This document shows, in pieces, positions 21,597 to 41,240 of a stretch of 64,000 bases of DNA. Numbering within the stretch: the stretch's first letter is position 1; each line of letters opens with the position of its first letter. The notes under the pieces are model-generated. The model searched no databases. It saw only the letters and a list, made by a program, of their open reading frames with translations, and had not been told where the DNA came from. The stretch covers positions 5,466 to 69,465 of the forward strand of contig JAZNCH010000069.1 in NCBI GenBank assembly GCA_045587445.1, read 5' to 3'. The position numbers were made by a program, and so were the translations under genes. Source of the DNA: Eubacteriales bacterium (GTDB taxonomy: Bacteria > Bacillota > Clostridia > Oscillospirales > CAG-272).

Positions 21597-22170
21597 AAAA
21601 CATTATCTTTAAATAAAACATCACCTCTATGCACTTATTACAGCTTCGCACAAACCAAGGAAGATTCCAAAGGTGGAAAACCTTTGGTCGTTTCGTGAGG
21701 ATGGGGTCAAGGGGAAGGAGCGAATCGAAACGCTCCTTCCCTTTGTGCCTTCTTTGCAATACTTTCTTGGCACCAAGAAAGTATGAGAAAAAAGAAAAAA
21801 GATAGGGTTCTTTTGGAACAATATCTCTATGATAATTGTTTGATTCATCTAAACAAATGTATCTATAAAAATTACACTCTTTTAGATTTCTTTTCGTTAC
21901 TTTCTTTCCGTAAAGAAAGTAACCAAAGAAGACGCAAAGGGGTAGGGCGGTAACACCGCAGGAGAAAACTGGTGCGTACAAGTCAATTAAGTTCTTTATT
22001 GAGTTTGAAGAACCAGAGATTCCCTCTCGCGTGGCGAGCGATTCTCCCCCTCCCTTTGAACCCTCCCTCTTAAAACGGCCAAAGAGGAGACCTCTTTGGA
22101 ATTTTCCTTTAGTCTGTGCGGAGTTGTAATAAGTACATAGGGATAATGATTTGTTTGAAGATAATGTTTA
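21597..22170. repeat. Palindrome-rich ~570-bp non-coding element, copy A, bounded by ~90-bp terminal inverted repeats
   Basis: The left end AACATTATCTTTAAATAAAACATCACCTCTATGCACTTATTACAGCTTCGCACAAACCAAGGAAGATTCCAAAGG is repeated in inverse at 22075-22170. The interior is a chain of hairpins. It is about 90% identical to the reverse complement of 40686-41240. Confidence 0.9.
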
Positions 22171-22196
22171 TTTCATAAACACTATCAAAGTTATTG

Positions 22197-22252
22197 CCAC
22201 CTTTGGAATTTTTCTTTAGTCTGTGTGAAGCTGTAATAAGTGCATAGAGGGG
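22197..22252. repeat. Solo extra copy of the terminal module of element A
   Basis: CCACCTTTGGAATTTTTCTTTAGTCTGTGTGAAGCTGTAATAAGTGCATAGAGG matches the right terminal repeat (22085-22140). Confidence 0.85.
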
Positions 22253-22280
22253 ATTTTTTGGGGAAAAACATGAAAAGCTC

Positions 22281-22309
22281 TTGACAAATTTTTAGTGCGG
22301 TGCTATACT
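22281..22309 (+). promoter_or_regulatory. sigma-A type promoter for the second T-box leader
   Basis: TTGACA (22281-22286), 17 nt spacer, TATACT (22304-22309). Confidence 0.55.
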
Positions 22310-22315
22310 AAGGCA

Positions 22316-22580
22316 TATTAAAAATGCAATGAAGGAATTATTCCCATTTATACTTCACTTCAGAGAGCTGTCGGTTGGTGTAAGACAGTGTGAAAGCATC
22401 TGGGGAGTCTCGTTCCTGAGCAGAACCGCAGAAAATAATATGAGTAAGCGGTTACGGATTGTCCCGTTATCATGGCAGAAGGCTTGTTAGAGTCTTATTG
22501 AGTTGACCGTTTTTACGGTAAACAGGGTGGTACCGCGATAACTTCGTCCCTGAAGTCAAAATTGACTTCGGGTTTTTTTA
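22316..22580 (+). promoter_or_regulatory. T-box riboswitch leader (candidate specifier CUC, Leu) with intrinsic terminator
   Basis: AGAGAG (22362-22367), distal loop GGUUGGUG (22373-22380), AGGGUGGUACCGCG (22524-22537), terminator CCCUGAAGUC-aaaauu-GACUUCGGG plus U7 (22548-22580). Confidence 0.88.
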
Positions 22581-22629
22581 TTTTATTATGCCGATAAAAT
22601 AGTAAGGCACACAGAAAGGGTGTTTTGTA

Positions 22630-24012
22630 ATGAAACAAATTAAAATTGCAGACAAGACGCTTTGCAGAAATGACAAAGCATTCAGCTTCAAAGAAAGACT
22701 TGAAATAGTAAGACAGCTCGAAAAGCTAAAGGTTGACGTAATAGAGCTTCCCGAAATTGCAAATGTAAGAACTGACATTCTTCTTGTGCGTACGGCATCG
22801 TCTTTTGTAAAAAACAGTGTTATATCCGTTGCGGCGGGAAGTAACGCACAGTCGATAGATGATGCGGCGGCGGCTTTGAGTGTTGCAAAAAAAGGAAGAA
22901 TACGTATAGAAGTACCCACATCGGCTGTCGGTATGGAATACTTTATGCACAAAAAGCCCGAAAAGATGAAAGAGTGGGTAAAGAACGCTGTAGAAAAGGC
23001 GGTATCCCTTTGCTCCGACGTTGAATTTTGTGCTTTTGATGCAACAAGAGCAGAACCCGAATTTCTAATTGAGCTTATAAAAATTGCAGTAAATGCAGGC
23101 GCAAAAACCGTTTCCGTATGCGACAGCGCGGCGGGAAAGATGCCTGACGACTTTGCAAAGTTTGGCAAAAAAATAGCCGAGGAAGCCGGTGTTGACGTTG
23201 GTGTTGACTGTTCAAACAAGAATGGGCTTGCATCAGCCGAGGCTATTATGGCTGTGAGAGAGGGCGTTTCAGTTGTTAAAACGTCAATAGGGGGAGACTG
23301 TGTTCCCTTTAAGGCTTTTGCGAGTATGATAAAGAACTGCGGAGATAATTACGGTTTCACGGCAGGAATAAGCTATACCGAAATGCACCGCATATTAAGT
23401 CAGGTAGGTTGGATATGCTCCGAGAAAAAGGCGGAAAAGAATGTTTCTGTATCTTCTGTTGAAGAAAGCGGTATAAGACTTGATGCAAAAGACGATATAA
23501 ATGCGGTAGCGGCTGCCGTAGCAAAGCTCGGATATGACCTTTCCGACGAAGATAACAAACGTGTACACGAGGAAGTATGCCGCGTTGCAGAAAAGAGAAG
23601 CGTGGGTGCAAAAGAGCTTGATGCAATCGTAGCAACGGTTGCTTTGCAGGTGCCCGATTCATACAGACTTGAAAATTACGTTATAAACAACGGAAATATA
23701 ATCAGTGCAAGTGCACAGATAACCCTCAGCAGAGAGGGTAAAATGTTACAGGGAATTGCAATCGGAGACGGACCTATTGACGCGGCTTTCGTAGCTATTG
23801 AGCAAATTATCGGTCATCGCTATGAGCTTGACGATTTCCAGATTCAGTCTATTACCGAGGGCAAGGAAGCCGTAGGCTCGGCACTTGTTAAGCTTCGTTT
23901 TGACGGTAAGCTTTATTCGGGCAACGGTATTTCCACCGACATTATAGGTGCAAGTATCAGAGCGTATATAAGCGCGGTAAACAAGATTGTTTACGAGGAA
24001 CACAGTATTTGA
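22630..24012 (+). CDS. 2-isopropylmalate/citramalate synthase homolog (HMGL-like TIM barrel + LeuA dimerisation/regulatory domain) lacking the catalytic motifs
   Basis: It is collinear with LeuA. However, DTTLRDGEQ is replaced by ADKTLCRNDK, and the HxH metal site (V-H-C-H-NDLG) by V-D-C-S-NKNG. The C-terminal LeuA_dimer-like region is well preserved (GDGPIDAAFVAIEQI..GASIRAYISAVNKI). Confidence 0.8.
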   Translation: MKQIKIADKTLCRNDKAFSFKERLEIVRQLEKLKVDVIELPEIANVRTDILLVRTASSFVKNSVISVAAGSNAQSIDDAAAALSVAKKGRIRIEVPTSAVGMEYFMHKKPEKMKEWVKNAVEKAVSLCSDVEFCAFDATRAEPEFLIELIKIAVNAGAKTVSVCDSAAGKMPDDFAKFGKKIAEEAGVDVGVDCSNKNGLASAEAIMAVREGVSVVKTSIGGDCVPFKAFASMIKNCGDNYGFTAGISYTEMHRILSQVGWICSEKKAEKNVSVSSVEESGIRLDAKDDINAVAAAVAKLGYDLSDEDNKRVHEEVCRVAEKRSVGAKELDAIVATVALQVPDSYRLENYVINNGNIISASAQITLSREGKMLQGIAIGDGPIDAAFVAIEQIIGHRYELDDFQIQSITEGKEAVGSALVKLRFDGKLYSGNGISTDIIGASIRAYISAVNKIVYEEHSI

Positions 24013-24030
24013 TGAAAGGGTAACGTAAAA

Positions 24031-26529
24031 ATGAAGCTTTCGTTTTCAACAAAGGGTTGGCACAACAGAACCTTTAATGATTTTTGTGAAATAGCCGAAT
24101 CTCTGAAATTCAAGGGGATCGAGCTTCACAATATAAATAACCGTCTTTTTACCGACAGAGACGGAGCTTTTCACGATTATTCTGCGGCATCGACATTGCG
24201 CAGTCTCTATGACAAAAAGCTTTCTATACCTTGCATTGATATAGTAAGTGATATTTCGGTTGAATCCGAAGTCGAAGAAGCAAGAAAAGAAATTGCAAGA
24301 TGCTTTGAAATAGCACAGTTTTTGCATATTCCATATATCCGTTTGAAATCGCGTACGGAAAATGCTGACGGAATTAGCGTTGCCGAGAACTTTTTAAAAG
24401 AAGTCTTACCTGAGGCAGAGGAACGCGGCATTGTACTTTTGCTTGAAACTTCGGGTCTCTTCCGCAATACTGCCGTTTTGCGTACGACTCTTGAAGGGTT
24501 CGCTTCCGACAGTCTTGGTGCATTGTGGAATTTGTCTGAGGCATATACCGAAGAAAAGAATGCCGAAATTATAATAAAGAATCTCGGAGCATACATCAAA
24601 CACGTACATTATAACGATATAACTTTTGAAAACGGCGACAAAGAATACTGTCTTGCCGGAGAGGGCGAACTGCCTATAAAAGATATTATGAACGCTTTGA
24701 GAAGCGTTAACTACGACGGCTTTATATCGCTCGTATGGGACCCTACGTGGTGCGAAGAGATAGACGATATGGAAATTATCTTTGCACAGTTCAGCCACTA
24801 TATGAAGCAGTTTTCCGATACCTCAAAAGGAGACAAGAATTTTTACTACAACAGAGTGCATACAGGCCGTTTTAGTTGGAAAAAGGACGACCTTATCGAC
24901 CTTACGTTTTCACAAGTTCTTGACAGACTTGTTGAAGATTTCCCCGACCAGTACGCTTTCAAATATACCACGCTTGACTATACGAGAACGTACAGCGAAT
25001 TCAGAGATGACGTTGACACATTTGCGAGAGCACTTATTTCCCTCGGTGTTAAAGCGGGCGACAAGGTTGCTGCTTGGGCCTCCAACGTGCCTCAATGGTT
25101 TATTGCGTTTTGGGCAACCGTAAAAATAGGTGCAGTGCTTGTTACCGTAAATACCGCATACAAGATTCACGAGGCTGAATATTTGCTTCGTCAGTCAGAT
25201 ACACATACGCTTATTATGACAGAGGGCTCAAAGGATTCGAGCTACGGACAGATAGTAGCAGAGCTTTGTCCCGAGCTTGAAACGACAAAGGCAGGTAAAC
25301 CGCTTCACAGCAAGAAGCTTCCTTTCTTGCGTAACGTTATTACTGTCGGGTTTACACAAAGGGGCTGTATGACGTGGAATGATGCTTTAAAGAGAGCAGA
25401 CGAAGTTCCCGTTGAAGAAGTTTACAGAATGGCGGCGCAGGTAGACAAAGACGACGTATGCAATATGCAGTATACTTCGGGAACAACGGGTTTCCCCAAG
25501 GGTGTTATGCTTACACATTATAACGTTGTAAACAATGGTAAGTATATCGGCGACCACATGGATTTGTCGACAGCCGACAGAATGATGATTCAGGTGCCTA
25601 TGTTCCATTGCTTCGGCATGGTGCTTTCTATGACGGCGTCTATGACTCACGGAACGACAATGTATCCGTTGCCATATTTCTCACCTAAACCCGCGTTGGC
25701 GTGTGTTCACAACGAGCATATAACCGCATTTAACGGAGTTCCTACAATGTTTATCGCTATGATGGAGCATCCCGACTTTGAAAAGACCGATTTTTCATAT
25801 ATGAGAATAGGTATTATGGCGGGTTCAAACTGCCCTGCGGACCTTATGAAAAAGGCTACGGAAATTATGAATATGAAAGAAATTGTATCTGTTTACGGAC
25901 AGACAGAGGCATCGCCCGGCTGTACTATGAGCAGTTATTACGACTCTCTTGAAGTAAGAACGGAAACTGTAGGCTCTGCATTTGCTAACGTTGAATGTAA
26001 GATAATTAACCCCGATACAGGCGAAGAGTGTGCTGACGGAGAAAACGGCGAGTTCGTCGCAAGGGGATATAATGTTATGAAGGGTTACTACAAGATGCCG
26101 GGAGCGACAGCGTCGGCTATTGATGCTGATGGTTGGTTGCATACGGGCGACCTTGCGTGCCGCACCCCCGATGGTAACTACAGAATAACGGGTAGACTGA
26201 AAGATATGATAATCCGTGGCGGTGAAAATATTTACCCCAAGGAAATTGAGGAATTTATCTACACCTGTCCTAAAGTAAGCGACGTTCAGGTTATCGGTGT
26301 TCCCGACGAGAAATACGGCGAGGAAATTATGGCTTGTATTATACTCAAAGAGGGAGAAACAATGACCGAGGACGAGATGAAGAAATATATCGCCGACCAT
26401 ATGGCAAGACATAAGGTGCCGAGATATATTGATTTCGTTGATTCGTTCCCCATGAACGCGGCAGGAAAGATACAGAAATACAAGATGCGTGAAAACGCTG
26501 TTGAAAAGTTGGGGCTTAAGAAAGAGTAA
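24031..26529 (+). CDS. Fusion protein: xylose-isomerase-like TIM barrel (sugar phosphate isomerase/epimerase family) + AMP-forming acyl-CoA ligase (FadD-like)
   Basis: The N-terminal ~260 aa reads MKLSFSTKGWHNRTF..GIELHN..LLLETSG..HVHYND.. The remainder is a ligase: YTSGTTGFPKGVMLTH, YGQTE, GWLHTGD, RLKDMIIRGGENIYPKEIE, AGKIQK. Confidence 0.88.
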   Translation: MKLSFSTKGWHNRTFNDFCEIAESLKFKGIELHNINNRLFTDRDGAFHDYSAASTLRSLYDKKLSIPCIDIVSDISVESEVEEARKEIARCFEIAQFLHIPYIRLKSRTENADGISVAENFLKEVLPEAEERGIVLLLETSGLFRNTAVLRTTLEGFASDSLGALWNLSEAYTEEKNAEIIIKNLGAYIKHVHYNDITFENGDKEYCLAGEGELPIKDIMNALRSVNYDGFISLVWDPTWCEEIDDMEIIFAQFSHYMKQFSDTSKGDKNFYYNRVHTGRFSWKKDDLIDLTFSQVLDRLVEDFPDQYAFKYTTLDYTRTYSEFRDDVDTFARALISLGVKAGDKVAAWASNVPQWFIAFWATVKIGAVLVTVNTAYKIHEAEYLLRQSDTHTLIMTEGSKDSSYGQIVAELCPELETTKAGKPLHSKKLPFLRNVITVGFTQRGCMTWNDALKRADEVPVEEVYRMAAQVDKDDVCNMQYTSGTTGFPKGVMLTHYNVVNNGKYIGDHMDLSTADRMMIQVPMFHCFGMVLSMTASMTHGTTMYPLPYFSPKPALACVHNEHITAFNGVPTMFIAMMEHPDFEKTDFSYMRIGIMAGSNCPADLMKKATEIMNMKEIVSVYGQTEASPGCTMSSYYDSLEVRTETVGSAFANVECKIINPDTGEECADGENGEFVARGYNVMKGYYKMPGATASAIDADGWLHTGDLACRTPDGNYRITGRLKDMIIRGGENIYPKEIEEFIYTCPKVSDVQVIGVPDEKYGEEIMACIILKEGETMTEDEMKKYIADHMARHKVPRYIDFVDSFPMNAAGKIQKYKMRENAVEKLGLKKE

Positions 26530-26534
26530 GGAAT

Positions 26535-27347
26535 ATGCTTGATAACAAATATTACGTAATAGACGCACATTGCCATATATATCCCGAGAAAATAGCGGCG
26601 AGGGCGGTAGCGGGAACCGACGGTTTCTACGGAGAACATTCTTTTGGAGACGGAACGGTAAGCGGTTTGCTCGAAGTGGGGGACAAAGCCGGTATAGACC
26701 ACTATATTGTGCAGTCGGTGGCGACAACACCCCATCAAGTGAAGAGTATTAACGAGTTTATTGCAGAAAGCGTGAAAAACGGAAACGGTAGATTTACAGG
26801 ACTCGGTACCCTTCACCCTGATACCGAAGACCTTGACGGAGACATTAAACACCTTATGGAAATGGGGCTTAAAGGAGTAAAGCTGCACCCCGATATACAG
26901 CGTTTTAAAATAGACGATTACAGATGCCTTAAGATATATGAAAAATGCGAAGAATTTGGGTTGCCTATATTGATGCATACGGGCGACCACAGATACGATT
27001 TTTCAAATCCTAACAGACTTTTTCCGGTTATGGAGATATATACGGGATTAACCGTTATCGGTGCTCACCTTGGCGGTTGGTCTATTTGGGAAGAGGCGGC
27101 GAAAAAGCTGTCTGGATTACCTAATCTGTATGTCGATTGCTCGTCAAGCCTATATGCTATGAGCAGTGAAACAGCCAAAAGGATAATCTATACTTACGGC
27201 GTTGATAAAGTTCTTTTTGGAACGGATTATCCTATGTGGGACCCTAAAGCAGAGCTTGAAAGATTCTTTAATATAGGATTGACCGAAGAGGAAAACAGAA
27301 AGATCTTGTCGGGAAACGCCGAAAAACTATTTGGTATTAAGAGATAA
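26535..27347 (+). CDS. Amidohydrolase-2 family metal-dependent hydrolase (TIM barrel)
   Basis: VIDAHCHIYPEKIA.., HTGDH.., FGTDYPMW. It starts 5 nt after the preceding gene. Confidence 0.8.
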   Translation: MLDNKYYVIDAHCHIYPEKIAARAVAGTDGFYGEHSFGDGTVSGLLEVGDKAGIDHYIVQSVATTPHQVKSINEFIAESVKNGNGRFTGLGTLHPDTEDLDGDIKHLMEMGLKGVKLHPDIQRFKIDDYRCLKIYEKCEEFGLPILMHTGDHRYDFSNPNRLFPVMEIYTGLTVIGAHLGGWSIWEEAAKKLSGLPNLYVDCSSSLYAMSSETAKRIIYTYGVDKVLFGTDYPMWDPKAELERFFNIGLTEEENRKILSGNAEKLFGIKR

Positions 27348-27350
27348 TAT

Positions 27351-27377
27351 AAAAAAGCACCGTTTGGTGCTTTTTTT
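27351..27377. terminator. Bidirectional Rho-independent terminator
   Basis: AAAAAAGCACC-guu-UGGUGCUUUUUUU between convergent genes. Confidence 0.8.
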
Positions 27378-28023
27378 ACTTCATCATATAACCTTTGCCT
27401 CTGATAGTGTAAATCATCTTTACACCGAGGTTATTGTCAAGTTTTTTGCGTAGATAGTTTATATATACGTTATCTGCGTTGTTTTTTGTGTCGTAGTCTT
27501 CTCCCCAAATCGTATCAATAACCTTTTGGCGTGGAACTATATGACCTTTGTTTTTATAGAGAAGCGAGAGCAGAGCAAATTCTTTTGGGGAAAATTTAAT
27601 GCTTCTTCCGTCTACAGTTACATTCTTCGTAAATGGGTCAAGCTCCATATTAACCGCAGATTTCGCGTGATTAACAGTCATTCCAACAGCTCTTTTTACG
27701 TCAAATTTGTCGCCAACAAGCTTTATAAGCTCCGTAACTCTGAACGGCCTTTCAAAAAAGGCTATTACATTTTCAAAATCAATATCTATTGCAGTTTTAC
27801 CGAACACGACAAAAGGAAGTTGAATTTTACTTACAAACGACAAGTCGCTCGAATAGTATTCGGCATCAAATACAACAAGACTTGCAGTATCTGCAATAAG
27901 CTTCAATGCGGGGGAATTGAGTGGTTCGGTAATGCTCTTTACCTTTAGCCCTATCCCGACAAATTCAAGCTCAAGCATACGCACAAATCTTTTATCACAG
28001 CTTATTAAACAAATATCGTTCAT
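27376..28023 (-). CDS. OmpR/PhoB-type winged-helix DNA-binding protein with an atypical receiver-like N-terminal domain
   Basis: The C-terminus carries the Trans_reg_C motif (LSPKEFALLSLLYKNKGHIVPRQKVIDTIWGED..VYINYLRKKL). In the N-terminus CD replaces the acidic DD pair and ERPF replaces the conserved KP. Confidence 0.8.
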   Translation of the reverse strand: MNDICLISCDKRFVRMLELEFVGIGLKVKSITEPLNSPALKLIADTASLVVFDAEYYSSDLSFVSKIQLPFVVFGKTAIDIDFENVIAFFERPFRVTELIKLVGDKFDVKRAVGMTVNHAKSAVNMELDPFTKNVTVDGRSIKFSPKEFALLSLLYKNKGHIVPRQKVIDTIWGEDYDTKNNADNVYINYLRKKLDNNLGVKMIYTIRGKGYMMK

Positions 28024-28799
28024 TTCTTGGTTTCCAAATTAAATTGTCTCCAACGAGTGTCAAGCCACTTTGCAGTAGCCCACATTACGCTATATCCTGC
28101 AACGGTTTTAATAAGCCAGCTTACGTAGGGGGTAATGAGATATACAATTTCTGTAGAGTTGAGGTCGCTTGCGCCGTATGATACTACGTCAACAATTGTA
28201 TCGATTATGCATGACGAAAGGAGAAATGCCGATATGAGTACAACTATCCAAGCAGATATGGCAATAAGGGGATTCTTTGCAGAAAAGAAAGCTTTTACCG
28301 TAATATTGGTGTTGTTTTCATCAAGATATTTGGAGCGCAGAAAACAAGCGAGGAAGAGTGCGCCGACAAGAAGCATAACGTCTACAACGGCATTAGTTAA
28401 GCAAGTAACCAAGTTGCCTACAAAAGATGCGGCGAGATTTTCCGTGACGATAGCACCTATTACGAGATAAGACGAATAAATGATAGCAATTCTCAAAAAG
28501 CAGAAGCCGATAATTTTTTTGCTTTTCTCATAGCCGAACCGAATAATCGAATTAAGCAAAACGGCATAGACAAAAAACAAACCGACGAGATTCAGAGCGG
28601 TTATAAATCCGCCTAAAAAGTTAGCTACGCCCACAAGGAGTATATCGCCCGATATAAACGACAAAATCAGCGAAAGAACAAAGTTGCTTATCAAAGGGAG
28701 TATAACGCAGCCGATAAGCGAAAGCAAATTCAAATGCTTCGTAAATAAAGACACAGCGTTATTTCCTACGGGGGTAACTCTTTTTTTATTAACAGCCAT
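28020..28799 (-). CDS. Polytopic membrane protein of unknown function (about 6 TM)
   Basis: Hydrophobic helices run throughout. Its stop overlaps the start of the downstream regulator by 4 nt (ATGA-type coupling). Confidence 0.6.
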   Translation of the reverse strand: MAVNKKRVTPVGNNAVSLFTKHLNLLSLIGCVILPLISNFVLSLILSFISGDILLVGVANFLGGFITALNLVGLFFVYAVLLNSIIRFGYEKSKKIIGFCFLRIAIIYSSYLVIGAIVTENLAASFVGNLVTCLTNAVVDVMLLVGALFLACFLRSKYLDENNTNITVKAFFSAKNPLIAISAWIVVLISAFLLSSCIIDTIVDVVSYGASDLNSTEIVYLITPYVSWLIKTVAGYSVMWATAKWLDTRWRQFNLETKK

Positions 28800-28815
28800 A
28801 GTAAATACCTCTTTT

Positions 28816-29736
28816 TTATTTTATTTCGTTCAAATCGTAAGGTGTAAGCTGATATACACAGTAGTTAAGCCAATTCGCAAAGAGCAGGTGAGCGTGACCT
28901 CTCCAAGTGTTTAACGGTTTTTTAGTGGGGTCATCATTGGGGAAGTAGTTGTAGGGAACTTGAATATCAATTCCCTTGTTTACGTCTCTGAAATATTCTT
29001 TTGAAAGAGTGTCGTAGTCATATTCAAGATGACCTGTTGCAAAGAATCTTCTCATAGACTTGTCGGCAATGAGGAAGAGTCCCGATTTGTCCGACTCTGC
29101 TAGAACTTCGAGGTTTTTATTGTTGCGTACAAGCTCTGCATCAATATCGGTATGTCTTGAATGAGGCGCGTTAAATACCTCATCGAAACCGCGAAGCAAA
29201 GGATGCGAGGGATTGTTTATCGTATGAGGGAATATGCCAAACATTTTTTGGGGTAATGGATGCTTCGGAATACCGTAATGGTAGTACAGTGCTGCCTGTG
29301 CCGCCCAACATATATGAAGAGTGGAATAAACGTGTGTTTTTGACCATTCCATTATCTTACAAAGCTCATCCCAATATCCTACCTCGGAAAAATCGAGTAT
29401 TTCAACCGGTGCACCTGTTATTATAAGTCCGTCAAACTTCTCGTTCATAACATCTGCGCAGCTTGTGTAGAAATGGTGCATATGTTCCTCGGAAGTGTGC
29501 TTTGGCTTGTGAGCCGTCGAAGGATAGAGAAGAGTAAGCTCTACCTGCAAAGACGTATTGGAAAGCAGTCTTATAAGCTGTGTTTCGGTAACTATCTTTG
29601 TAGGCATAAGATTGAGTATGGCTATTTTAAGAGGACGGATATCCTGGTGAATAGCGCGGTTTTCGTCCATAACGAATATATTTTCATTTTCAAGGATTTC
29701 TATTGCGGGAAGTCCCGATTGCACCTTGATTGGCAT
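28816..29736 (-). CDS. metA: Homoserine O-acyltransferase (MetA family)
   Basis: [53 protein letters not shown] is diagnostic of MetA. Confidence 0.95.
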
Positions 29737-29824
29737 AATATCACCTCTTTGAGTAAAAGATTTGCTATTAAACCATTATATCAGTATTTTTCAACTATAT
29801 CAAGAGTTTTCTTGAAAATAAATG

Positions 29825-29985: not shown

Positions 29986-30017
29986 AAATCCCGAGAGATT
30001 TTTAAGTCTCTCGGGAT
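29983..30017 (-). terminator. Rho-independent terminator of the E1 gene
   Basis: On the minus strand: AUCCCGAGAGAcuuaaaaaUCUCUCGGGAU followed by UUUUUU. Confidence 0.8.
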
Positions 30018-32712: not shown

Positions 32713-32714
32713 TC

Positions 32715-34076
32715 TTATATCTGGAAGAGACCTTCTCTGATAACTTCGCAAACTGTAGGATGCGGGAATACCATCTTATGAACGTCTTCGACACGCATTT
32801 CGTTTTCTACCATCATAGCAGCACCGTAAATAATCTCGGAAGCATAAGTACCTATCATATGAACGCCGAGGATAGTGCGGTGGTTCTTGTCGATGATAAT
32901 CTTAACGATACCGTCGCCGCCTTCGTTTTCAGCAATATATCTACCGGAATAACGGAGAGTATAGCTTTCAACCTTTGCATCAAGACCCTTAGCCTTAACA
33001 GTTTCGGATGTTTCACCTACACTTGCAACTTCGGGGTTGGTGTAAATAACAGCGGGGATAGCGTTGTAGTTAACCTTGTCTTTCTTGCCGAGAATATTGT
33101 TTATGCAAACTTCGCCTTCGCGGTAAGCTGTATGAGCGAGCATTGACTTGCCGTTTATATCTCCTGCAGCCCAAACGCCGGGAACGTTAGTTTTGCCGTC
33201 TTCGCCTGTAACGATAGCACCTCTTTCGGTAAGAACGCCAATGTTTTCAAGTCCGAGACCTGCAGTAGAGGGGCGTCTGCCGATAGAAACGAGAACGCAG
33301 TCAGCCTTAACTGTCTTAGCTTCGCCGTTTATTTCATAGTTAACGCAGTCAGCACCTACTGAAGTAACCTTTGCGGAAAGGAGGAATTCAACGCCTTTCT
33401 TCTTATAATTCTTAAGAAGAAGAGCTGATATTTCGCCGTCTGTAGGACCTGCGATGTGATCGAGCATTTCGATAACCTTAACGTTTGAACCGATAGAGTT
33501 GAAGTAACTTGCCATTTCAAGACCGATAACACCGCCGCCGATTACTACAAGTTCCTTCGGAACTGTAGTCATATCGAGAATCTCGCGGTTAGTTTTTGCA
33601 AAACCGGAAGCAACTGCTTCTCTAAGACCGGGAATGGGGGGAACTGCAGCTTCAGAACCTGCACAGATGAGAAGCTGTTTACCTGTGTATTCCTTGTCGC
33701 CTGCCTTAACAACAAAGCCTTCGGCATTTTTTTCTTTTATTTCTGCAAGTTCTTTTACAACTTCAACGCCTGCTCTCTTCATAGTACCTTCGATACCGGA
33801 AACGAGAGTCTTTACAACCTTGCCTTTTCTTTCAACAACTTTTGCGTGGTCGATAGATGCACCGTCAAACTTAACGCCGTAAGCATCACTGTGCTTTGCG
33901 TAATCGTAAATCTTTGCAGAGTAGAGGAGTGTTTTTGTGGGGATACAACCCTCGTTGAGACAAACACCGCCCATTGCGCGTTTTTCTATAACGAGTGTTT
34001 TAAGACCGCCGTGAGCGGCTTTTTCGGCTGCGTTATAACCTGCGGGTCCGCCACCGATTACAATAAGATCGTACAT
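32715..34076 (-). CDS. lpd: Dihydrolipoyl dehydrogenase (E3)
   Basis: MYDLIVIGGGPAGY..GGVCLNEGCIPTK redox-active disulfide, a second GGGVIGLE NAD site, and the C-terminal HPT motif. Confidence 0.95.
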   Translation of the reverse strand: MYDLIVIGGGPAGYNAAEKAAHGGLKTLVIEKRAMGGVCLNEGCIPTKTLLYSAKIYDYAKHSDAYGVKFDGASIDHAKVVERKGKVVKTLVSGIEGTMKRAGVEVVKELAEIKEKNAEGFVVKAGDKEYTGKQLLICAGSEAAVPPIPGLREAVASGFAKTNREILDMTTVPKELVVIGGGVIGLEMASYFNSIGSNVKVIEMLDHIAGPTDGEISALLLKNYKKKGVEFLLSAKVTSVGADCVNYEINGEAKTVKADCVLVSIGRRPSTAGLGLENIGVLTERGAIVTGEDGKTNVPGVWAAGDINGKSMLAHTAYREGEVCINNILGKKDKVNYNAIPAVIYTNPEVASVGETSETVKAKGLDAKVESYTLRYSGRYIAENEGGDGIVKIIIDKNHRTILGVHMIGTYASEIIYGAAMMVENEMRVEDVHKMVFPHPTVCEVIREGLFQI

Positions 34077-34107
34077 TTATAATACTTCCTTTCTTATATA
34101 GGATAAC

Positions 34108-35418
34108 TTATTTAGCCATAAGAAGGTTAAAGTTTTCGAGGTTTGTGCAAAGTTCTTTGAGGAATCTTGCAGCGGGAGCTCCGTCAAGTGCTCTGTGGTC
34201 GAACGTGAGTGAAAGACCCATAGCGTCGTAGAATACGTCCTGACCGTTTACCTGTTTTACGCGGCGGGTAATGTTACATACGCCGAGGATACAAGTCTGG
34301 GGTGGATTGATAACGGGAGTGAAGCTTTCAACGCCCATAGCTCCGAGGTTGGTAACTGTAAATGTACCGCCGGAAAGGAGGTCGGGGCTGATAGAACCGC
34401 CCTGAGCAGCCTTGATAACTGTCTTAGCGTTTGCGGAAAGCTCGTTAAGGCTCATCTTGTCAGCGTTGAATACTGTAGGAACGAGGAGACCTCTTTCTGT
34501 GTCAACAGCGATACCGAGGTTAACGTTGTTAAAGAATCTCATCTTATCGCCGAGGAAGTGAGCGTTGCAATCTTTGTGGTTCTTCAATGTCTTTGCAACT
34601 GCAAAGAGTACCATATCGTTGAATGTGATATTGTTAAGCCCCATAGCTTCTGCATTCTTTTTAAGAAGCGCACGGTATTCCATAAGCTGTGTTGCATCGA
34701 AAGAAGCGTTGAGTGTAAGCTGAGCCATAGAAGAAAGGGACTCGTGCATAGACTTTGCAATAACCTTTCTTACGTTGGAAAGCTTCACGTCTTCGTACTC
34801 TGCAACAGGAGCGGCGGGAGCAACTGCGGTAGCAGGAGCTTCTGCAGCTTTTGCGGAAGGAGCAACACCTGTCTTCATAAATGTTTCATATTGTTCGGGT
34901 GTAAGTCTCTGACCGTTGTCGAGGAGTCTGTTTACGTCTCTTTCAATGATTCTGCCGTTGGGGCCTGTAGGAGTAGCCTGAGAAAGATCTGCGTAAGTCT
35001 TGTTTGCAAGATTCTTCGCGCGGGGGCTGATTTTCATCATGCCGTCTTTGTCAGCACTTTCGGTTGCAACAACAAATTCTTCTTTCTTAGCTTCTTCTTT
35101 CTTTTCTTCTGCGGGAGCAGCAGCTTCAGCAGGTGCAGCTTCAGCAGTAGCCTTAGGCATAAGAGCGCTTATATCTTCGCCTTCGTTACCGATAATGCAT
35201 ACGGGGTCAAGGCAAGGAACGTCATCGCCTTCTTCTGCAAAAACTTCGAGAAGAGTACCTGAAACTGTTGCGGGCTCATCAAAAGATGATTTGTCTGTTT
35301 CGTAAGAGAATAGTACGTCGCCTTCAGCAATCGCATCTCCCTTTTTCTTTTTCCATTCGGTAATGACGCAGCTTTCGACGGATTGTCCTTGGCGCGGCAT
35401 TATAACTAATGTTGCCAT
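34108..35418 (-). CDS. Dihydrolipoamide acyltransferase (E2) with one lipoyl domain
   Basis: Lipoyl-lysine context SYETDKSSFD, Ala/Pro/Glu linkers, a PSBD (ISPRAKNLA), and the catalytic DHRALDGA motif. Confidence 0.95.
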   Translation of the reverse strand: MATLVIMPRQGQSVESCVITEWKKKKGDAIAEGDVLFSYETDKSSFDEPATVSGTLLEVFAEEGDDVPCLDPVCIIGNEGEDISALMPKATAEAAPAEAAAPAEEKKEEAKKEEFVVATESADKDGMMKISPRAKNLANKTYADLSQATPTGPNGRIIERDVNRLLDNGQRLTPEQYETFMKTGVAPSAKAAEAPATAVAPAAPVAEYEDVKLSNVRKVIAKSMHESLSSMAQLTLNASFDATQLMEYRALLKKNAEAMGLNNITFNDMVLFAVAKTLKNHKDCNAHFLGDKMRFFNNVNLGIAVDTERGLLVPTVFNADKMSLNELSANAKTVIKAAQGGSISPDLLSGGTFTVTNLGAMGVESFTPVINPPQTCILGVCNITRRVKQVNGQDVFYDAMGLSLTFDHRALDGAPAARFLKELCTNLENFNLLMAK

Positions 35419-35457
35419 AAGTTTTTACCTCCAAAATATTTTATATGTTAATTAATT

Positions 35458-36222
35458 TTATGCTCGAATTATTTGTACGTCGTTTTTTGCGGCAATTTTT
35501 TCGATGTCTATAGGAAGGTTGCCGTTTGTAATAATCGCGGAAACGTTTTCCAAAGCGCAGAACGTATATGGCAAACTCTTGTCAAGTTTTGACGTGTCAA
35601 GGAGAACAATAATCTTTCTTGCCTTTTCAACTATCATCTTTTTCAATTCACATTCGCTGTAGTTACCGCAAGTAAGTCCCGTTTGCGCGTCTGCTCCCGA
35701 AGGGACAATAAACGCAATGTCGATATTAATATCTTCAAGGAAACGCAAAGCCTGTGTTCCCGAAACGGATATGTTATCTCTGTTGAGCATACCGCCTACG
35801 AGATTAACCAAGGTTTGCTTTTTGTTGAGTAACTCAATAGCGATATTGGGACCGGTAGTTGTTATGGTGAGTCTTTCTTCCGGAAGAAGAGCCGCCATTT
35901 TCATCATTGTTGTACCTGAGTCAAGGAATATGGAACGTCCCGTTTCAAGCAACTCGACAGCTTTTTTTGCAAGAGCCTCTTTTGCGGGAATGTTCTTTTG
36001 CATACGGCTGGGAAATTCCTCTTCCATAGAAGTGGTAATAAATTTCATGGAACGAGCACCGCCTCTGACTTTTATTGCCTCTCCCTGTTGTTCAAAATAG
36101 TCTATGTCGCGTCTGATTGTCATACTTGAAACGTCGGGAAAAAGCTCTATAAGCTCTTTTAAAGAAACAAAAGGCTTCGAATAAAGCATATCTTTAATCG
36201 TTTTTCTTCTTTCGGAATGCAT
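35458..36222 (-). CDS. DeoR/GlpR family transcriptional regulator
   Basis: N-terminal HTH (VSLKELIELFPDVSSMTIRRDIDYFEQQG) plus a DeoR C-terminal sensor domain. It lies 39 nt upstream of E2 on the same strand. Confidence 0.9.
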   Translation of the reverse strand: MHSERRKTIKDMLYSKPFVSLKELIELFPDVSSMTIRRDIDYFEQQGEAIKVRGGARSMKFITTSMEEEFPSRMQKNIPAKEALAKKAVELLETGRSIFLDSGTTMMKMAALLPEERLTITTTGPNIAIELLNKKQTLVNLVGGMLNRDNISVSGTQALRFLEDINIDIAFIVPSGADAQTGLTCGNYSECELKKMIVEKARKIIVLLDTSKLDKSLPYTFCALENVSAIITNGNLPIDIEKIAAKNDVQIIRA

Positions 36223-36745
36223 AGTATGTATTCTCCCTTTATCTTTTTATGAATTATGAGAAAAATTCACATCGAAGATGTTATTTTTAACATTTCGCTA
36301 TTCTAATTATATTAGAAAGTTTTCAAAATGTCAACATGATTATTGCAAAAAAACATTATTACAACTATTTTATTGCATATTTGTATCAATTTTTTTGGAG
36401 AATGTTAAAAATATACATTAGTTTAACAGTTAAATGCTGTAATAAGGGAGTTTTGGAATAGAATTTTTCTTTGTTGTTTGCATGCCGGTTAGTATAAGCT
36501 TTATGGTTTCACTTAACTTTGATATAGCGGCAGCATTTGAGTTGAAAGACTGATACGGCTAAACGTATATGATTTTGGTTCTGCCGAGCACTTCGAAGTG
36601 AAGAATATAGTAGTTCGTTTTGGGTATATCGCATTACCTCATTATTAAAAATCTCCAAAACAATTATACCATATAATATGTAAAAATTAAAAGGGGTTTT
36701 CGATAAAAATACATAAGTAACTATGAAAAATATTTATGAAAACAC

Positions 36746-36781
36746 AAAAAAGCAGTCGCTTTTTTCGAGTAACTGCTTTTA
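36746..36781. terminator. Probable terminator downstream of the carboxypeptidase gene
   Basis: AAAAGCAGU-15 nt-ACUGCUUUU, with a symmetric A/U-rich stem. Confidence 0.45.
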
Positions 36782-36796
36782 AGACTTATTAAAAAA

Positions 36797-38113
36797 TTAT
36801 CTTCTGCCGTTTTTACGGTACTTGTATCGGTATCTCTTGCTTTTTATACGGCTGTGAATCACAACGGCGAGGTAAAGAAATGTTACGCCGACGAGACAAA
36901 ATATAACCATCTTGAATTTCGGCGATTTTGTAAAATCTTTAATTTTTGCAAGTAAATACAATAGATTGTTTCTTTCAACGCTGTTTTTTGTTATAAGGTC
37001 AACCTCGGATAAAGTTTCTCCGTTAAGGGAAAGGAGAATTTTTCCCGCAACATAACCTTCGGGAACAGGTGCGTTGAGAGTTTTTGTATAAAGTTCAACC
37101 TTTCGTTCAATATCTTTTTTTATATCGACCGAAGAGGGTAAAAAATATTCTACCGTTTTTGCGGGGGAAAGTACGACATAATCGACTTGACCTGACAAAT
37201 TAACGTCAATTTCGCATATCATTTCGCCCTGATCAAGAATTTTTTTATATTCAAAGTTTTTGAAAGCCCAGTCTATCATTTCGTTAGCTGCTATGTAGCT
37301 ATATATATTTTCGTCGTCGTAGCTACCGCCCATAAGCACGAAAATATTGGTCATACCGTCTTTTTTTACGGCTGTAACAACTACATGACCGCCCTCAACG
37401 GTTGAGCCGGCGTTCATACCTTCGGCTGCTTTGTTTCTGTATTTTGTTTCTACGTTGGTTGCAATAAGATAGTTACTGTTATAAACATATCTCGTTTTCG
37501 ACATATTGGTCTCGGGGAATACGTATCTTGATACAGAACATATATCCATATAATCTTTTAGAAGATATGCATATTTCGCAAGAATGGCGGTGTCTTCGGC
37601 AGTCGTATACATATCCGATTCGGGATATCCCGAAGGATTGGTGTAGTTCGTGTTTTTCATGCCAAGCTCAACAGCTTTTTGATTCATATTGTCAAGAAAC
37701 AACTCGTGGCTTCCCGACATTTCGTATGCAAGAACGTATGCGGCATCGTTGGCTCCGCCTACGATTACGGCGTATATAAGATTTTCAACCGATACCACTT
37801 CGCCTGCTTTGAGTTTAATATTCTTTCCCTTAAAATCTCCCAATGATTCCTTGGTAACGGTAATAAGGTCGGACATATTGTCCTTGTATAACTCAACAGC
37901 CAAAATTCCTGTCATAATCTTTGCCGTTGAAGCAGGATGGATTCTGTCGGCTTCGTTCTTCTTGTAAAGTGTTTTATCGTTTTCTATATTGTAAACGAAA
38001 ACATTCTGAACTGACGACAGGTCTGGCATATCTTCTTCCGCATATACAGTAAATGCGAAAAACATCAATATTAAAATTGTAAAGCCTAAAAATAACAGTA
38101 TTCTTTTCTTCAC
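36797..38113 (-). CDS. D-alanyl-D-alanine carboxypeptidase (serine-type, PBP5/DacB-like) with a C-terminal membrane anchor
   Basis: Motifs PASTAKIMT (SxxK) and SGY/SxN, plus a PBP5 C-terminal domain. GTG 38113 gives the signal peptide VKKRILLFLGFTILILMFFAFTVYA and avoids overlap with ribF; the alternative ATG is at 38173. Confidence 0.88.
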   Translation of the reverse strand: MKKRILLFLGFTILILMFFAFTVYAEEDMPDLSSVQNVFVYNIENDKTLYKKNEADRIHPASTAKIMTGILAVELYKDNMSDLITVTKESLGDFKGKNIKLKAGEVVSVENLIYAVIVGGANDAAYVLAYEMSGSHELFLDNMNQKAVELGMKNTNYTNPSGYPESDMYTTAEDTAILAKYAYLLKDYMDICSVSRYVFPETNMSKTRYVYNSNYLIATNVETKYRNKAAEGMNAGSTVEGGHVVVTAVKKDGMTNIFVLMGGSYDDENIYSYIAANEMIDWAFKNFEYKKILDQGEMICEIDVNLSGQVDYVVLSPAKTVEYFLPSSVDIKKDIERKVELYTKTLNAPVPEGYVAGKILLSLNGETLSEVDLITKNSVERNNLLYLLAKIKDFTKSPKFKMVIFCLVGVTFLYLAVVIHSRIKSKRYRYKYRKNGRR

Positions 38114-38117
38114 TTTT

Positions 38118-39062
38118 TTAATTCCCCTGATTTTTTGAAAAATATTCTCTAACCGAAAAAATATCTTTTTCAATTGCTTCTTTTAATTCTTCCATTCCGT
38201 CGAATTTCTGTTCGTCTCGAAGTCTTTTATAAAAGCTTACTTTTACTCTTTGGTCGTAAAGACAACCATCGTAATCAATAATATGAGTTTCGCAGTTAAT
38301 ATCTTCAACATCGTTGTTTACCGTAGGACGAGACCCAACGTTTGATACCCCCATAAACGTATTTCCGTCAACCAAACAAGTGCTGGCATATATTCCGTTT
38401 TTTAGTTTTATCTTATCTGAAGGGAATGCTTGATTTATCGTCGGTATTCCAAGAGTTCTGCCTAAGTGCTTTCCGTGAACGACAGGGAGGTTTATCGAAT
38501 ATGGTCTGCCTAACATACTGTTGGCTTTTTCTATTTGTCCCGCTTTAATTGCATCTCGTATAGCTGTTGAACTGATAATGCCTTCTTGTGTGCATACGGC
38601 GTCTGTAACAATAACGTTTCGTCCTGTCTTTTTGAGTAGTTCCCCTAATATTTCAGGAGTCCCCGTTCTGTTGTTGCCGAATCTGAAATTAAAACCGCAA
38701 ACGGCTAAACGGCAGTCGAATTTTTTTGTAAGTATTATGTCAACGAACTCTTCGGGCGTATAATTTCTAACTGAGAGAAAATCCTCGTATATGGCATAGT
38801 CAAGATCGTTTTCTGTAAATATATCATTTTTTTCTTCGGTCGATGTAAGATATGCGTTCTTTTTTGGGAAAAGGGTGTTCATAGTGTGTTCTTCAAATGT
38901 CCACACCCCGACCTTTAGTCCAAGTCGTTTTCCCTCGGCGATAGCGTTTTTTATAAGCTCAAGATGACCGAGGTGGATTCCGTCAAAGTTTCCCAATATC
39001 AAACAAAGGGGAGACGAACAGTCTTTGATTTCTATTCTGTTTTTCAAATCTATTATTTTCAA
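38118..39062 (-). CDS. ribF: Bifunctional riboflavin kinase / FMN adenylyltransferase
   Basis: LILGNFDGIHLGHLELI.., and GRTLGIPTIN..GIYA..G.SNVGSRPT. TTG 39062 lies 8 nt after AAGGGGA; the ORF-track extension to 39164 has no homology context. Confidence 0.92.
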   Translation of the reverse strand: MKIIDLKNRIEIKDCSSPLCLILGNFDGIHLGHLELIKNAIAEGKRLGLKVGVWTFEEHTMNTLFPKKNAYLTSTEEKNDIFTENDLDYAIYEDFLSVRNYTPEEFVDIILTKKFDCRLAVCGFNFRFGNNRTGTPEILGELLKKTGRNVIVTDAVCTQEGIISSTAIRDAIKAGQIEKANSMLGRPYSINLPVVHGKHLGRTLGIPTINQAFPSDKIKLKNGIYASTCLVDGNTFMGVSNVGSRPTVNNDVEDINCETHIIDYDGCLYDQRVKVSFYKRLRDEQKFDGMEELKEAIEKDIFSVREYFSKNQGN

Positions 39063-39185
39063 AATGCGTCCCCTTAATTTGTTATAAATCAATAACTCTG
39101 CCCCAAAACAACCGAGATAGTCGCAAAGGAACAGAGCGTAAAAATGCGTAACAAAAAAACTCAAAAATTTTTTAAACTTAAAAAA

Positions 39186-39443
39186 TTATTTGACTCCGAG
39201 AAAATTCTTCACAAGAATGTTTAAAAGTTCGTCGCGGTCAATCTTGCGGATAAGACTGCGGGCGTTCTTGTGATTGGTGATATAAGTCGGGTCTTCCGAA
39301 AGAATATAACCAACTATCTGATTAATGGGATCGTAGCCCTTTTCGATAAGAGCGGCATACACGTTTAGAAGAATTTTTCTTGTGTCGTCGTCTTTTTCTC
39401 CGTTAAGCGAAAAGGTTAGTGTTTTGTCTTTCTCATCGTACAT
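39186..39443 (-). CDS. ireB: IreB-family regulatory phosphoprotein (UPF0297)
   Basis: An 85 aa protein; ..[47 protein letters not shown] is a UPF0297 hallmark. Confidence 0.85.
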
Positions 39444-39610
39444 TTTGTTTCAGCTCCTTGCGAGTTGCGTTTTATTTATTTTACACCTAATCCCCAATAA
39501 TATCAATAGGTTATAACTTATTTTTTTGAAATCTTTGAAAAAATTAAAGAATTATTTAAAATTGCGGCATACGGAAGGCAAAAACCGTACGCCGCGCCGC
39601 TATATAAAAG

Positions 39611-40552
39611 TTAAAAGTATGTTTCAATCAACTTATTACTTTCGTCTGGGGAGTATTTCCATGAATCAATATGTTTTATGTTGGCCTTGGGAAAGGGACT
39701 GTTTGTATTGGTTTTCTTTTCGCCCTTGTAGCTGTCGATAAGCACAAGCTTTATTTTCATTCTTTCGGGAATTATATTTTTTATGTAAACTGCGGCTGTC
39801 TGACCGACGGTTATACCTTCGCGGTATTCCGCAAGTCCCGCAAGATTAGGAGTCAGTTCTACAAATATTCCATAATCCTCAATAGAACGTACGATGCCTG
39901 CGACCGTTTGCCCAACTGAAAAAAGGTTTGCGTTTTCTTCCCACGTTCCGAGCAGTTCTTTGTGGGTTACGTATATTCTGCCAGATTCAAAATCAATGCT
40001 TTTTATTACTGTGTTGATGTACTGTCCTATGGTAAATCTGTCGGAAGGGTGGCTTATTCTTGAAACCGATATACAGTCGATAGATAAGAGCGAGATTATA
40101 CCGCAACCAATATCGACAAAAGCTCCGAAATGCTCAAGGTGGGTTACCTTTGACGGAATGACGTCGCCGGGGGAGAGGTGTGATAGATAACATTCATAAC
40201 ACTCTCTCTGAGCTTCGCGTCTTGACAGTATGCACAGAGGAGAGCCGTTTTCGTTGTACCTTATTTCTTTTATTTTAAAGCATACGGCTTTGCCCACCCT
40301 TGTTATGACGGCAATATCTTTTACTCCGTTGCCGTTGATTTCCCAAACGACCTCTTCTCTGGGGATAATGCCTCGGATACCGTTGCCGAGTTCGACGTAT
40401 AAGGACATAGCGTTGTTGCAAAGAATAGCCATTCCTTCGAGTATAACGCCCTCCTGTTTAGCTTTTTCAAGTCCCGCCAACGTAGAAAGATACTCCGTAT
40501 TTTCCGACCTTTCGAGCTTCATTCCCTCGGGATAATACATACGTTTTTCCAT
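39611..40552 (-). CDS. S1 RNA-binding domain protein (multiple S1 repeats)
   Basis: Repeated S1 motifs (GDVIPSKVTHLEHFGAFVDIG.., GQTVAGIVRSIEDYGIFVEL..). The start is uncertain: ATG 40552 or TTG 40591. Confidence 0.8.
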   Translation of the reverse strand: MEKRMYYPEGMKLERSENTEYLSTLAGLEKAKQEGVILEGMAILCNNAMSLYVELGNGIRGIIPREEVVWEINGNGVKDIAVITRVGKAVCFKIKEIRYNENGSPLCILSRREAQRECYECYLSHLSPGDVIPSKVTHLEHFGAFVDIGCGIISLLSIDCISVSRISHPSDRFTIGQYINTVIKSIDFESGRIYVTHKELLGTWEENANLFSVGQTVAGIVRSIEDYGIFVELTPNLAGLAEYREGITVGQTAAVYIKNIIPERMKIKLVLIDSYKGEKKTNTNSPFPKANIKHIDSWKYSPDESNKLIETYF

Positions 40553-40685
40553 ATAAAGTTTTCCTGCCTTTCGTCCTCTTTTTTGATGCAAGTCTTATTT
40601 TGTACAATTGTATTTACGAGGACGAAAAAATAGAACAAAATAATGTGATTGTATTTTTGTGCGGTTTGCAAAAGAAGAAACAAAA

Positions 40686-41240
40686 AACATTATCTTCAAA
40701 CAAACACCACCCCCTATGTACTTATTACAGCTCCGCACAGACCAAGGAAGATTCCAAAGGTGGAAAACCTTTGGCCGTTTTACGAGGGAGGGTTCAAAGG
40801 GAGGGGGAGAATCGCTCGCCACGCGAGAGGGAATCTCTGGTTCTTCAAACTCAATAAAGAACTTAATTGACTTGTACGCACCAGTTTTCTCCTGCGGTGT
40901 TACCGCCCTGTCCCTTTGCGTCTTCTTTGGTTACTTTCTTTACGGAAAGAAAGTAACGAAGAGAAATCTAAAAGAATGTAATTTTTTATAGATACATTTG
41001 TTGAGAAGTATCTAACAATTATCATAGAGATATTGTTCTAAAAGAACTCTATCTTTTTTCTTTTTTTCATACTTTCTTGGTGCCAAGAAAGTATTGCAAA
41101 GAAGGCACAAAGGGGCTGGGGGTTTCGATTCCCCCACCCCTTTGAACCCCATACCCCCAAAACGACCAAAGAGGAGACCTCTTTGGAATTTTCCTTTAGT
41201 CTGTGCGGAGCTGTAATAAGTGCATAGATGTGATATGTTT
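40686..41240. repeat. Palindrome-rich ~555-bp non-coding element, copy B (inverted relative to copy A)
   Basis: It has the same terminal modules as 21597-22170. The interior equals the reverse complement of copy A at about 90% identity, for example CCGTTTTACGAGGGAGGGTTCAAAGGGAGGGGGAGAATCGCTCGCCACGCGAGAGGGAATCTCTGG. Confidence 0.9.

Follow-up and report, generated by a model that had tools for sequence, protein, structure and literature searches.

The 64,000-nt window analysed here (contig JAZNCH010000069.1 of assembly GCA_045587445.1, from a member of the Eubacteriales) holds two long copies, A and B, of an intergenic hairpin-rich repeat, which lie in inverted orientation on either side of an 18.5-kb block of genes (Table 1). 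On its plus strand, the block carries a T-box leader followed by genes for an HMGL/LeuA-like protein, a fusion of AP_endonuc_2 and AMP-binding domains, and an amidohydrolase. On its minus strand lie genes for a regulator, HTS (metA), E1/E3/E2 and DeoR, followed by dac, ribF, ireB and an S1-domain gene. This inventory mostly confirms the one given in an earlier reading of the same DNA (hereafter the original prediction), which had listed a Leu-T-box operon, metA, a 2-oxoacid dehydrogenase cluster, dac, ribF, ireB and the S1 gene; a T-box leader, metA-type HTS and E1/E2/E3 correspond to the first three. [quoted passage not shown] The non-coding, MITE-like character proposed in the original prediction is supported, and it can be extended because the element shows signs of mobility.

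Table 1. Positions of the two repeat copies, their parts and adjoining features in the window
Feature	Position	Strand	Remarks
Copy A, mosaic repeat of ~560 bp	21597..22170	+	between divergent lepA and T-box promoters
Copy B, reverse complement of copy A	40686..41240	-	between divergent S1-domain gene and YfbR promoter
Segment between copies, 18.5 kb	22171..40685	.	
Left T module of A, CTCTATGCACTTATTACAGCTTCGCACAAACCAAGGAAGATTCCAAAGG	21621..21676	+	nhmmer 63 bits; hairpin 21667-21687 begins inside
Asymmetric core of A, ~310 nt	21728..22038	+	hairpin cassettes 21759-21784, 21790-21814 and 21896-21923, with imperfect ones
Right T module of A	22091..22146	-	profile 59.9 bits
Linker with small 'GATA' hairpin	22150..22197	.	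perfect stem-loop TGTTTATTTCATAAACA, 22165-22181; between right T and solo T
Solo third T module	22198..22259	-	repeat search, profile, predicted fold
T module of B, S1 side	40710..40763	+	profile 63.3 bits
T module of B, YfbR side	41178..41233	-	profile match; outer extension diverged
Inverted arm pair 1	21867-22084 / 40769-40986		218 nt, 98%; includes the 126-nt exact run
Inverted arm pair 2	21788-21871 / 40983-41066		84 nt, 93%
Inverted arm pair 3	21682-21799 / 41054-41171		118 nt, 82%
lepA promoter-like site	21534..21562	-	TTGATT-17-TATAAT; outside copy A
T-box operon promoter-like site	22281..22309	+	TTGACA-17-TATACT with TG; outside copy A and solo T
YfbR/rlmN promoter-like site	41344..41372	+	TTGACA-17-TATAAT, 12/12; outside copy B

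Anatomy of the two copies

Copy A measures 574 bp and copy B 555 bp. Based on BLASTN and pairwise alignment, A and the reverse complement of B are 89.3% identical over 553 nt, as expected from the reverse-complement pair of about 90% identity that had been predicted. The longest exact run between them is 126 nt (21944-22069), and the next are 49 and 48 nt. An inverted-repeat search spanning 20.5-42.5 kb resolved the pair into three collinear arm pairs (Table 1). The core is 98% alike in A and B and the termini only about 80%. The 98% stretch would represent a gene-conversion tract or a recent copy.

Terminal inverted repeats, which had been predicted at about 90 bp, were found in both copies. 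In A, 21593-21676 pairs with 22091-22174 (84 nt, 75%); in B, 40714-40763 pairs with 41178-41227 over only 50 nt (80%), because the outer end of B on the YfbR side has diverged. Inverted symmetry reaches about 130 nt in from each element end. The ends are made of a terminal unit of about 55 nt, CTCTATGYACTTATTACAGCTYCGCACARACY-AAGGAARATTCCAAAGG, referred to here as the T module. The 26-nt core of the terminal repeat, CTATGYACTTATTACAGCTYCGCACA, occurs five times in the window and in none of 100 shuffles (0 expected), the fifth occurrence being a solo T module about 50 nt to the right of copy A. This solo module pairs with the left end of A at 82-87%, which is better than A's own right end. The T-module profile matched both ends of both copies at 60-63 bits, and a profile of the five T modules revealed no additional copy within the 64-kb window.

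Each T module runs into a small perfect hairpin (CCAAAGG-TGGAAAA-CCTTTGG or CCAAAGAGG-NNN-CCTCTTTGG), which is followed by a G-rich module ending in GAATCG. A second small hairpin, termed 'GATA', joins T modules into tandem or inverted arrays in the window and in relatives alike, and the T-hairpin-T layout of the linker beside A recurs in the related loci L099 and L001. The outer 'AAACATTATCTT', which had been taken as the terminus of the element, proved to be half of this 'GATA' hairpin. Perfect stems of at least 7 bp form seven hairpins in A and six in B, in agreement with the expected six or more per copy. T modules, 'GATA', CCAAAGG and G-rich AATCGAAA-loop hairpins recombine into forms of about 120-670 bp. 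Besides the long form of 560 bp, the family includes T modules on their own, T modules in tandem arrays and short T-loop-T hairpins.

Folded as single-stranded DNA, the 669-nt stretch 21597-22265 has a predicted energy of -145.9 kcal/mol versus -69 for shuffled sequences (z = -12.7); its outermost stem is formed by pairing of A's left T module with the solo one. The stem of the G-rich hairpin is kept despite changes in both arms, being GGGAAGGAGCG..CGCTCCTTCCC in A versus GGGGTGGGGG..CCCCCAGCCCC in B, and further variants of it occur in metagenome contigs. Maintained stems of this kind fit either a structural need for mobility or templated repair in palindromes. No open reading frame (ORF) longer than 33 aa is common to A and B, and the two ORFs called within the elements occupy different halves and have no Pfam match. 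The view that no credible gene lies inside the elements is therefore confirmed.

Within each terminal repeat, a patch of about 35 nt stands in direct rather than inverted relation between A and B. It extends from ACC/ACT-AAGG through the first hairpin and exists in two variants, p at the left end of A and B (as read on the plus strand) and q at the right end of both. The direct relation amounts to 94-96% identity over 67-69 nt, while the sequence outside and inside the patch is inverted.

Polymorphism of the two sites in relatives

Both insertion sites were compared with those of relatives whose flanking DNA is 85-90% identical to the window. At site A (lepA/T-box), three relatives (L089, L090 and L092) have no T module; the gap there is 494 bp versus 1128 bp in the window, and a 60-bp unrelated hairpin sequence replaces the element. 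A 3.2-kb contig from sequencing run X2, which extends from lepA to the T-box operon, carries only a 20-nt stub of a T module, which meets the solo T module at the 5-bp sequence TTATT. The contigs of runs X9 and X3, followed from the lepA side, pass into a short coreless T-TTTCCGC-T hairpin, and run X4 has tandem T modules. A long element is present in L093 (sample ERZ27227494), where it occupies a different insertion point, retains the 60-bp sequence and has its left-side interior toward the T-box operon, opposite to the window.

At site B (S1/YfbR), L101 and L102, which belong to the RGIG7296 lineage described below, have no more of the element than the outer half of a single T module, located where the window has its S1-proximal T module. 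The contigs of L098 and L099 start inside the element and show other combinations of modules; in L099, the layout at this site is T-GATA hairpin-T, as in the window at site A. The contig of L100 starts inside the S1-proximal T module. Site A has at least four allelic states, and the family was found at three distinct loci (A, B and rpsU). To judge from these alleles, both intergenic regions are hypervariable for the element family and at least two of the insertions at site A are evidently independent.

The same comparison bears on an alternative in which each element is itself invertible, with the core of about 310 nt flipping between the terminal repeats of about 130 bp, which may alter local transcription. 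In sample ERZ27227494, the copies on the T-box side (L093) and on the S1 side (L099) both have the left interior facing the block genes, where the window has the right interior. In addition, the direct patch amid inverted sequence would be expected from two terminal-repeat inversions with different crossover points, and inversion is reported for Correia elements (as cited in PMC10969869). However, the core holds no promoter-like site of at least 10/12 positions, and no recombinase gene lies nearby among the window ORFs tested and the related loci. With regard to the usual features of an inverton, the inverted repeats are present, no good promoter match lies inside the element, and no recombinase was seen in the ORFs tested. 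Furthermore, the opposite orientation is explained equally well by independent insertions, the L093 copy being placed at another intergenic point. No single sample was seen to have both core orientations at one locus, and both were seen only between strains. Core flipping is the most interesting loose end of this analysis, yet we regard it as unlikely; independent insertions together with ordinary recombination explain the same data.

Age, mosaicism and copy number

The segment at 21648-21786 of the window is identical to L093 at 139/139 positions and 99% identical to L099. The hosts themselves have diverged, the adjoining T-box and gene DNA being 88.5% identical and the S1 gene region 87%. 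At 88.5% per site, we calculate a chance of ~4e-8 that 139 sites would remain unchanged. These results indicate that the element is of more recent date than the split between its hosts.

The left side of A is 99-100% identical to the ERZ27227494 copies and 82% identical to B, and the corresponding left-side region of B is only 82-87% identical to the L093/L099 sequences. In its right-side core, A matches B at 98% but L098 at 84-90%. Copy A looks like a recombinant, with its left side from a lineage common with another species and its core common with B. Since the core is homogenised, A and B appear to have exchanged sequence, and gene conversion or exchange between them would be the simplest reading of the mosaic pattern.

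Contigs containing T modules are far deeper than their surroundings: 300-350 versus 15-18 in flanking single-copy contigs in run X2, 90-115 versus 6-7 in X4, and 160-195 versus about 7.5 in X9 and X15. Overall, the depth of T modules is about 15-20x that of single-copy sequence and that of the core cassettes about 4-7x; as these depths mix strains and species, they indicate a multi-copy family and give no number per genome. Run X25 contains the identical strain at a depth of only about 3x, with contigs that end at the edges of the element.

A further possibility is that a dedicated recombination or transposition system acts at the T modules, inserting, flipping and swapping hairpin cassettes between copies and between species, and that it would also flip the 18.5-kb block at low frequency. 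Under such a system, the conserved motifs GCACARAC and CCAAAGG would be where points of exchange concentrate. If true, it would explain the chimeric T modules, the presence of both core orientations at the same loci and the identical 139-nt segment in hosts with flanking DNA of only 88% identity. We consider such a system doubtful.

It could also be proposed that the elements are functional structured RNAs or cis-acting DNA signals, such as a small RNA, or terminators or insulators separating the divergent promoters, that are under selection and are not mobile DNA. The hairpin stems kept through changes on both arms between copies, and the 139 nt that are 100% identical between strains with diverged flanks, speak for this proposal. 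A permissive Rfam search returned only microRNA-type hairpin noise and a sub-threshold match to the Clostridiales-2 family, which is weak (23 bits versus a gathering threshold of 58.6, E ~0.006-0.009) but repeated in both copies, at 22049-22113 (-) and 40740-40804 (+), over the inner half of the T module and the G-rich module. What is held in common with Clostridiales-2 is a hairpin followed by CCGUnUUAnGAGGG..UCRAAGGGA, and this orphan motif may itself be a related repeat family. Contigs from a run labelled as a transcriptome also cover the T module and part of the core. On the other side, at the same sites in close relatives, with the flanking genes intact, the element is absent, truncated or in either orientation. 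Moreover, no Rfam family reaches its threshold in the elements, the only matches at gathering thresholds in the whole window being a tRNA-Lys and, with 128 bits at 22320-22554, the T-box leader. It is not possible to assign the RNA-labelled contigs to this locus, and they may contain DNA, and palindromes can keep their stems by templated repair with no function needed. A selected function of this kind therefore seems very unlikely.

Orientation of the 18.5-kb block

The original prediction had proposed that the pair is a recombination substrate and that the intervening block could exist in both orientations within populations or between strains, which would change the direction of its genes with respect to replication. 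The inverted copies do have long exact runs in common (126, 49 and 48 nt), the first of which exceeds the minimal efficient processing segment of RecA-type recombination. In addition, A and B may have undergone gene conversion in the past, as suggested by a core that is 98% identical beside flanks of roughly 82%. Other bacteria provide documented cases of large inversions at inverted repeats (PMC6778178, PMC8743559), and other inversions have rearranged this neighbourhood in relatives with 83-87% protein identity.

However, all relatives that span a junction have the orientation of the window. The gene lepA adjoins the T-box operon in L089, L090, L092 and the 3.2-kb X2 contig, and YfbR adjoins S1 in L101, L102 and the more distant L106. 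This indicates that the assembled orientation is ancestral and that it is not an assembly artefact. The rearrangements in distant relatives have none of their ends at the proposed breakpoints, and those genomes are without T modules. Synteny with related genomes, which the original prediction had itself put forward as a check, thus returned a single orientation only, and the inversion reading fails there.

The base composition of the genes points the same way. Since a gene-strand effect dominates the GC skew at the level of the window and makes it uninformative, the skew at third codon positions (GC3 skew) was used instead, gene by gene on the coding strand. Outside the block, it is +0.11 for plus-strand genes and -0.25 for minus-strand genes. 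The ten minus-strand genes of the block reach -0.30, a full lagging-strand signature, and the three plus-strand block genes, at -0.03, fall within the spread of other plus-strand genes. The minus-strand genes of the block thus resemble other lagging-strand genes, whereas a recently inverted or often-flipping block would be leading-like or intermediate, and this indicates that the block has long been in its present orientation. Both relatives and skew support the present orientation only, contrary to the proposal that both could exist.

An exchange of promoters upon inversion had also been envisaged. The promoter-like sites of lepA, the T-box operon (where the site is kept in relatives) and YfbR lie outside the repeats, so that each gene would move with its own promoter and the envisaged swap would not follow. 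Joints on 'opposite strands' in metagenome contigs were rejected as evidence of inversion, because T modules, which are inverted repeats of one another, map ambiguously. Among the sequencing runs searched, no long-read (PacBio) run holding this strain was found, and short-read contigs cannot reveal heterogeneity of orientation within a population. RecA-type exchange between A and B, and with it rare inversion within a population, could take place. If the block did switch, some 13 kb of housekeeping genes would change between head-on and co-directional transcription. The existence of the block in both orientations is nevertheless improbable.

Several rearrangements of the neighbourhood were recorded apart from the repeats. 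In L106 (GCA_045645205.1), 3967-14645 corresponds to 36797-46940 of the window, with an S1 protein that is 84% identical, and PrkC-PP2C-RlmN-YfbR/S1-IreB-RibF-Dac is inverted relative to the DeoR-E2-E3-E1 and BcrAD..DUF421 flanks. No inverted repeat was found at the breakpoints of this L106 inversion. In L103/L105, the S1..Dac unit comes after YolD, and L094 and L107 differ from the window in the genes upstream of the T-box operon.

Distribution of the family and other hairpin chains

The protein relatives come from metagenome-assembled genomes (MAGs) labelled Clostridia, Ruminococcaceae or Oscillospiraceae, and no record matched the LepA of the window exactly. Sequencing runs with words in common with the window are bovine, sheep and other gut metagenomes, none of which holds more than 31% of the words. 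In an exact-pattern scan for the canonical T module, 1 of 185,579 species-representative genomes matched. This match (L001) is the MAG 'Clostridia bacterium RGIG7296' from water-buffalo caecum, a close relative of the window strain with an S1 protein 94% identical. It carries a family member of about 250 bp downstream of rpsU, the third locus of the family. This member comprises one T module, a pair of GATA hairpins, a T-like unit in its interior and a T module that has diverged. Across the related loci, the T-module profile found copies only at the two orthologous sites and this one further locus.

Other collections gave no true copy. None of the listed matches in JGI metagenome contigs extends past the 18-nt pattern, so that they are chance matches; a scan of the viral collection with the T-module core gave four chance matches only; and BLASTN with the element had no match in the plasmid and phage collections. 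The family probably lives in a narrow clade of uncultured Clostridia from ruminants and guts.

Hairpin chains also occur in two other intergenic stretches of the window, 14700-15110 and 61100-61280, both downstream of genes, which have a 75-nt repeat (85%) in common. The original prediction had the element built from the same modules as such shorter intergenic repeats. A common motif grammar was indeed found, as both stretches have motifs such as GYACAGACCA and TTTCTTTGC..ACTTTCTT in common with the 560-bp element, and TTTCTTTGCCTACTTTCTTTCC..GAAAG, which they also contain, resembles parts of it, but the stretches have no alignable similarity to the element. The hairpin cassettes may thus belong to a wider superfamily.

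Other features of the window

The operon under the control of the T-box leader (22320-27347) is an unusual one, conserved in all relatives examined. It encodes an HMGL-like/LeuA_dimer protein that scores below the NCBIfam cut-offs for 2-isopropylmalate synthase, then a protein of 832 aa in which an AP_endonuc_2 TIM barrel is fused to an AMP-binding ligase, and finally an amidohydrolase_2 protein. This operon is not a canonical leucine biosynthesis operon.

Two repeats within genes were also observed. Nine tandem 15-bp units (ACCGAGCCTCCGGCG and variants) at 45832-46011 lie at the 3' end of the gene for the PASTA Ser/Thr kinase (43927-46005), where they encode a repeat of TEPPA type, likely a length-variable linker or tail. 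A direct repeat (10-801 / 2699-3499, 77-84% identity, spacing 2698 bp) corresponds to tandem paralogues encoding an enzyme with helix-turn-helix, cupin and AMP-binding domains, the first copy being cut by the edge of the window.

Discussion

The element can be compared with several known systems. Following the definition of MITEs in PMC3049150 and PMC10969869, it is similar to the bacterial examples, such as the Correia/CREE elements of Neisseria and RUP of Streptococcus pneumoniae, in its size of less than about 600 bp, its lack of a transposase and its terminal inverted repeats. Strongly base-paired folds, intergenic sites and a presence that varies between strains are further points of likeness. 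As differences from MITEs, no target-site duplication could be shown for it, no insertion sequence (IS) with matching ends was found, and it is not AT-rich; at about 55-130 nt, its terminal repeats are also of unusual length, and they are found singly and in tandem as well.

BOX elements of S. pneumoniae have end modules, boxA and boxC, around variable internal cassettes and measure 67-637 bp (PMC3049150). The present family is modular in the same manner, and because its terminal units behave as free-standing modules it is closer to BOX and BIME. BIMEs, the mosaics of repetitive extragenic palindromic (REP) sequences in enterobacteria, are alike in having units in alternating orientation with linker motifs, and the T-loop-T doublets of the family resemble REPINs. 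The module sequences differ from those of BOX and BIME, however, and the T module, unlike REP, is non-palindromic by itself. Large RecA-dependent inversions between inverted repeats have been described in S. aureus (PMC6778178) and between prophages of E. coli O157 (PMC8743559), where, as here, inverted homologous repeats flank a chromosomal segment. There, the repeats span kilobases and long reads revealed the two orientations, whereas the repeats here are 0.56 kb and 89% identical, and one orientation was seen. A CRISPR array, IS200/IS605 ends, an omega-RNA and a tRNA-derived or riboswitch element were also considered and rejected, as no supporting structure or Rfam hit was found for any of them and the ends of the element are true inverted repeats.

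In the mechanism that we propose for the mosaic repeat, the building blocks are a T module of about 55 nt, short perfect hairpins and an asymmetric core of cassettes of about 310 nt. Copies would be mobilised in trans by some enzyme and would settle in promoter-free gaps, either between divergent promoters or downstream of genes. They would come and go between strains through insertion, deletion across hairpins and recombination with other family members. Deletion across hairpins may leave the short forms and stubs, and recombination among copies may produce the chimeric ends and the homogenised core. The segment between the copies would be fixed in its ancestral orientation, and the inverted pair would represent a latent substrate of RecA-type inversion rather than a demonstrated switch.

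Several observations weigh against a mobile mosaic repeat of this kind. The terminal repeats of A and B are less conserved than the core, which is the reverse of what is seen in a pair of MITEs that has just transposed. Between filled and empty alleles, the difference is a replacement (about 36-60 bp at site A), with no clean insertion, and no target-site duplication could be defined, the sole candidate being the 5-bp TTATT at the boundary of the X2 deletion or insertion. A transposase or recombinase whose ends match was found neither in the window nor in related loci totalling about 200 kb. The GC content of the element, 39-41%, is close to that of the window (40%) and above that of intergenic DNA (33%), so that it is not AT-rich. 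Lastly, the canonical T module is very rare in the genome scan, and the estimate of copy number rests on contig depth.

For genome analysis, a practical consequence is that these repeats break short-read assemblies at just these sites, on either side of the block: the contigs of L093, L098 and L099 end inside the element, and that of L100 inside the S1-proximal T module. The orientation of a segment between such an inverted pair is accordingly not trustworthy in short-read MAGs. With regard to the biology of these bacteria, the two copies represent a family of mosaic repeats, MITE-like and not described before, that occurs in uncultured Clostridia of ruminants and guts and turns over faster than the host genomes diverge.

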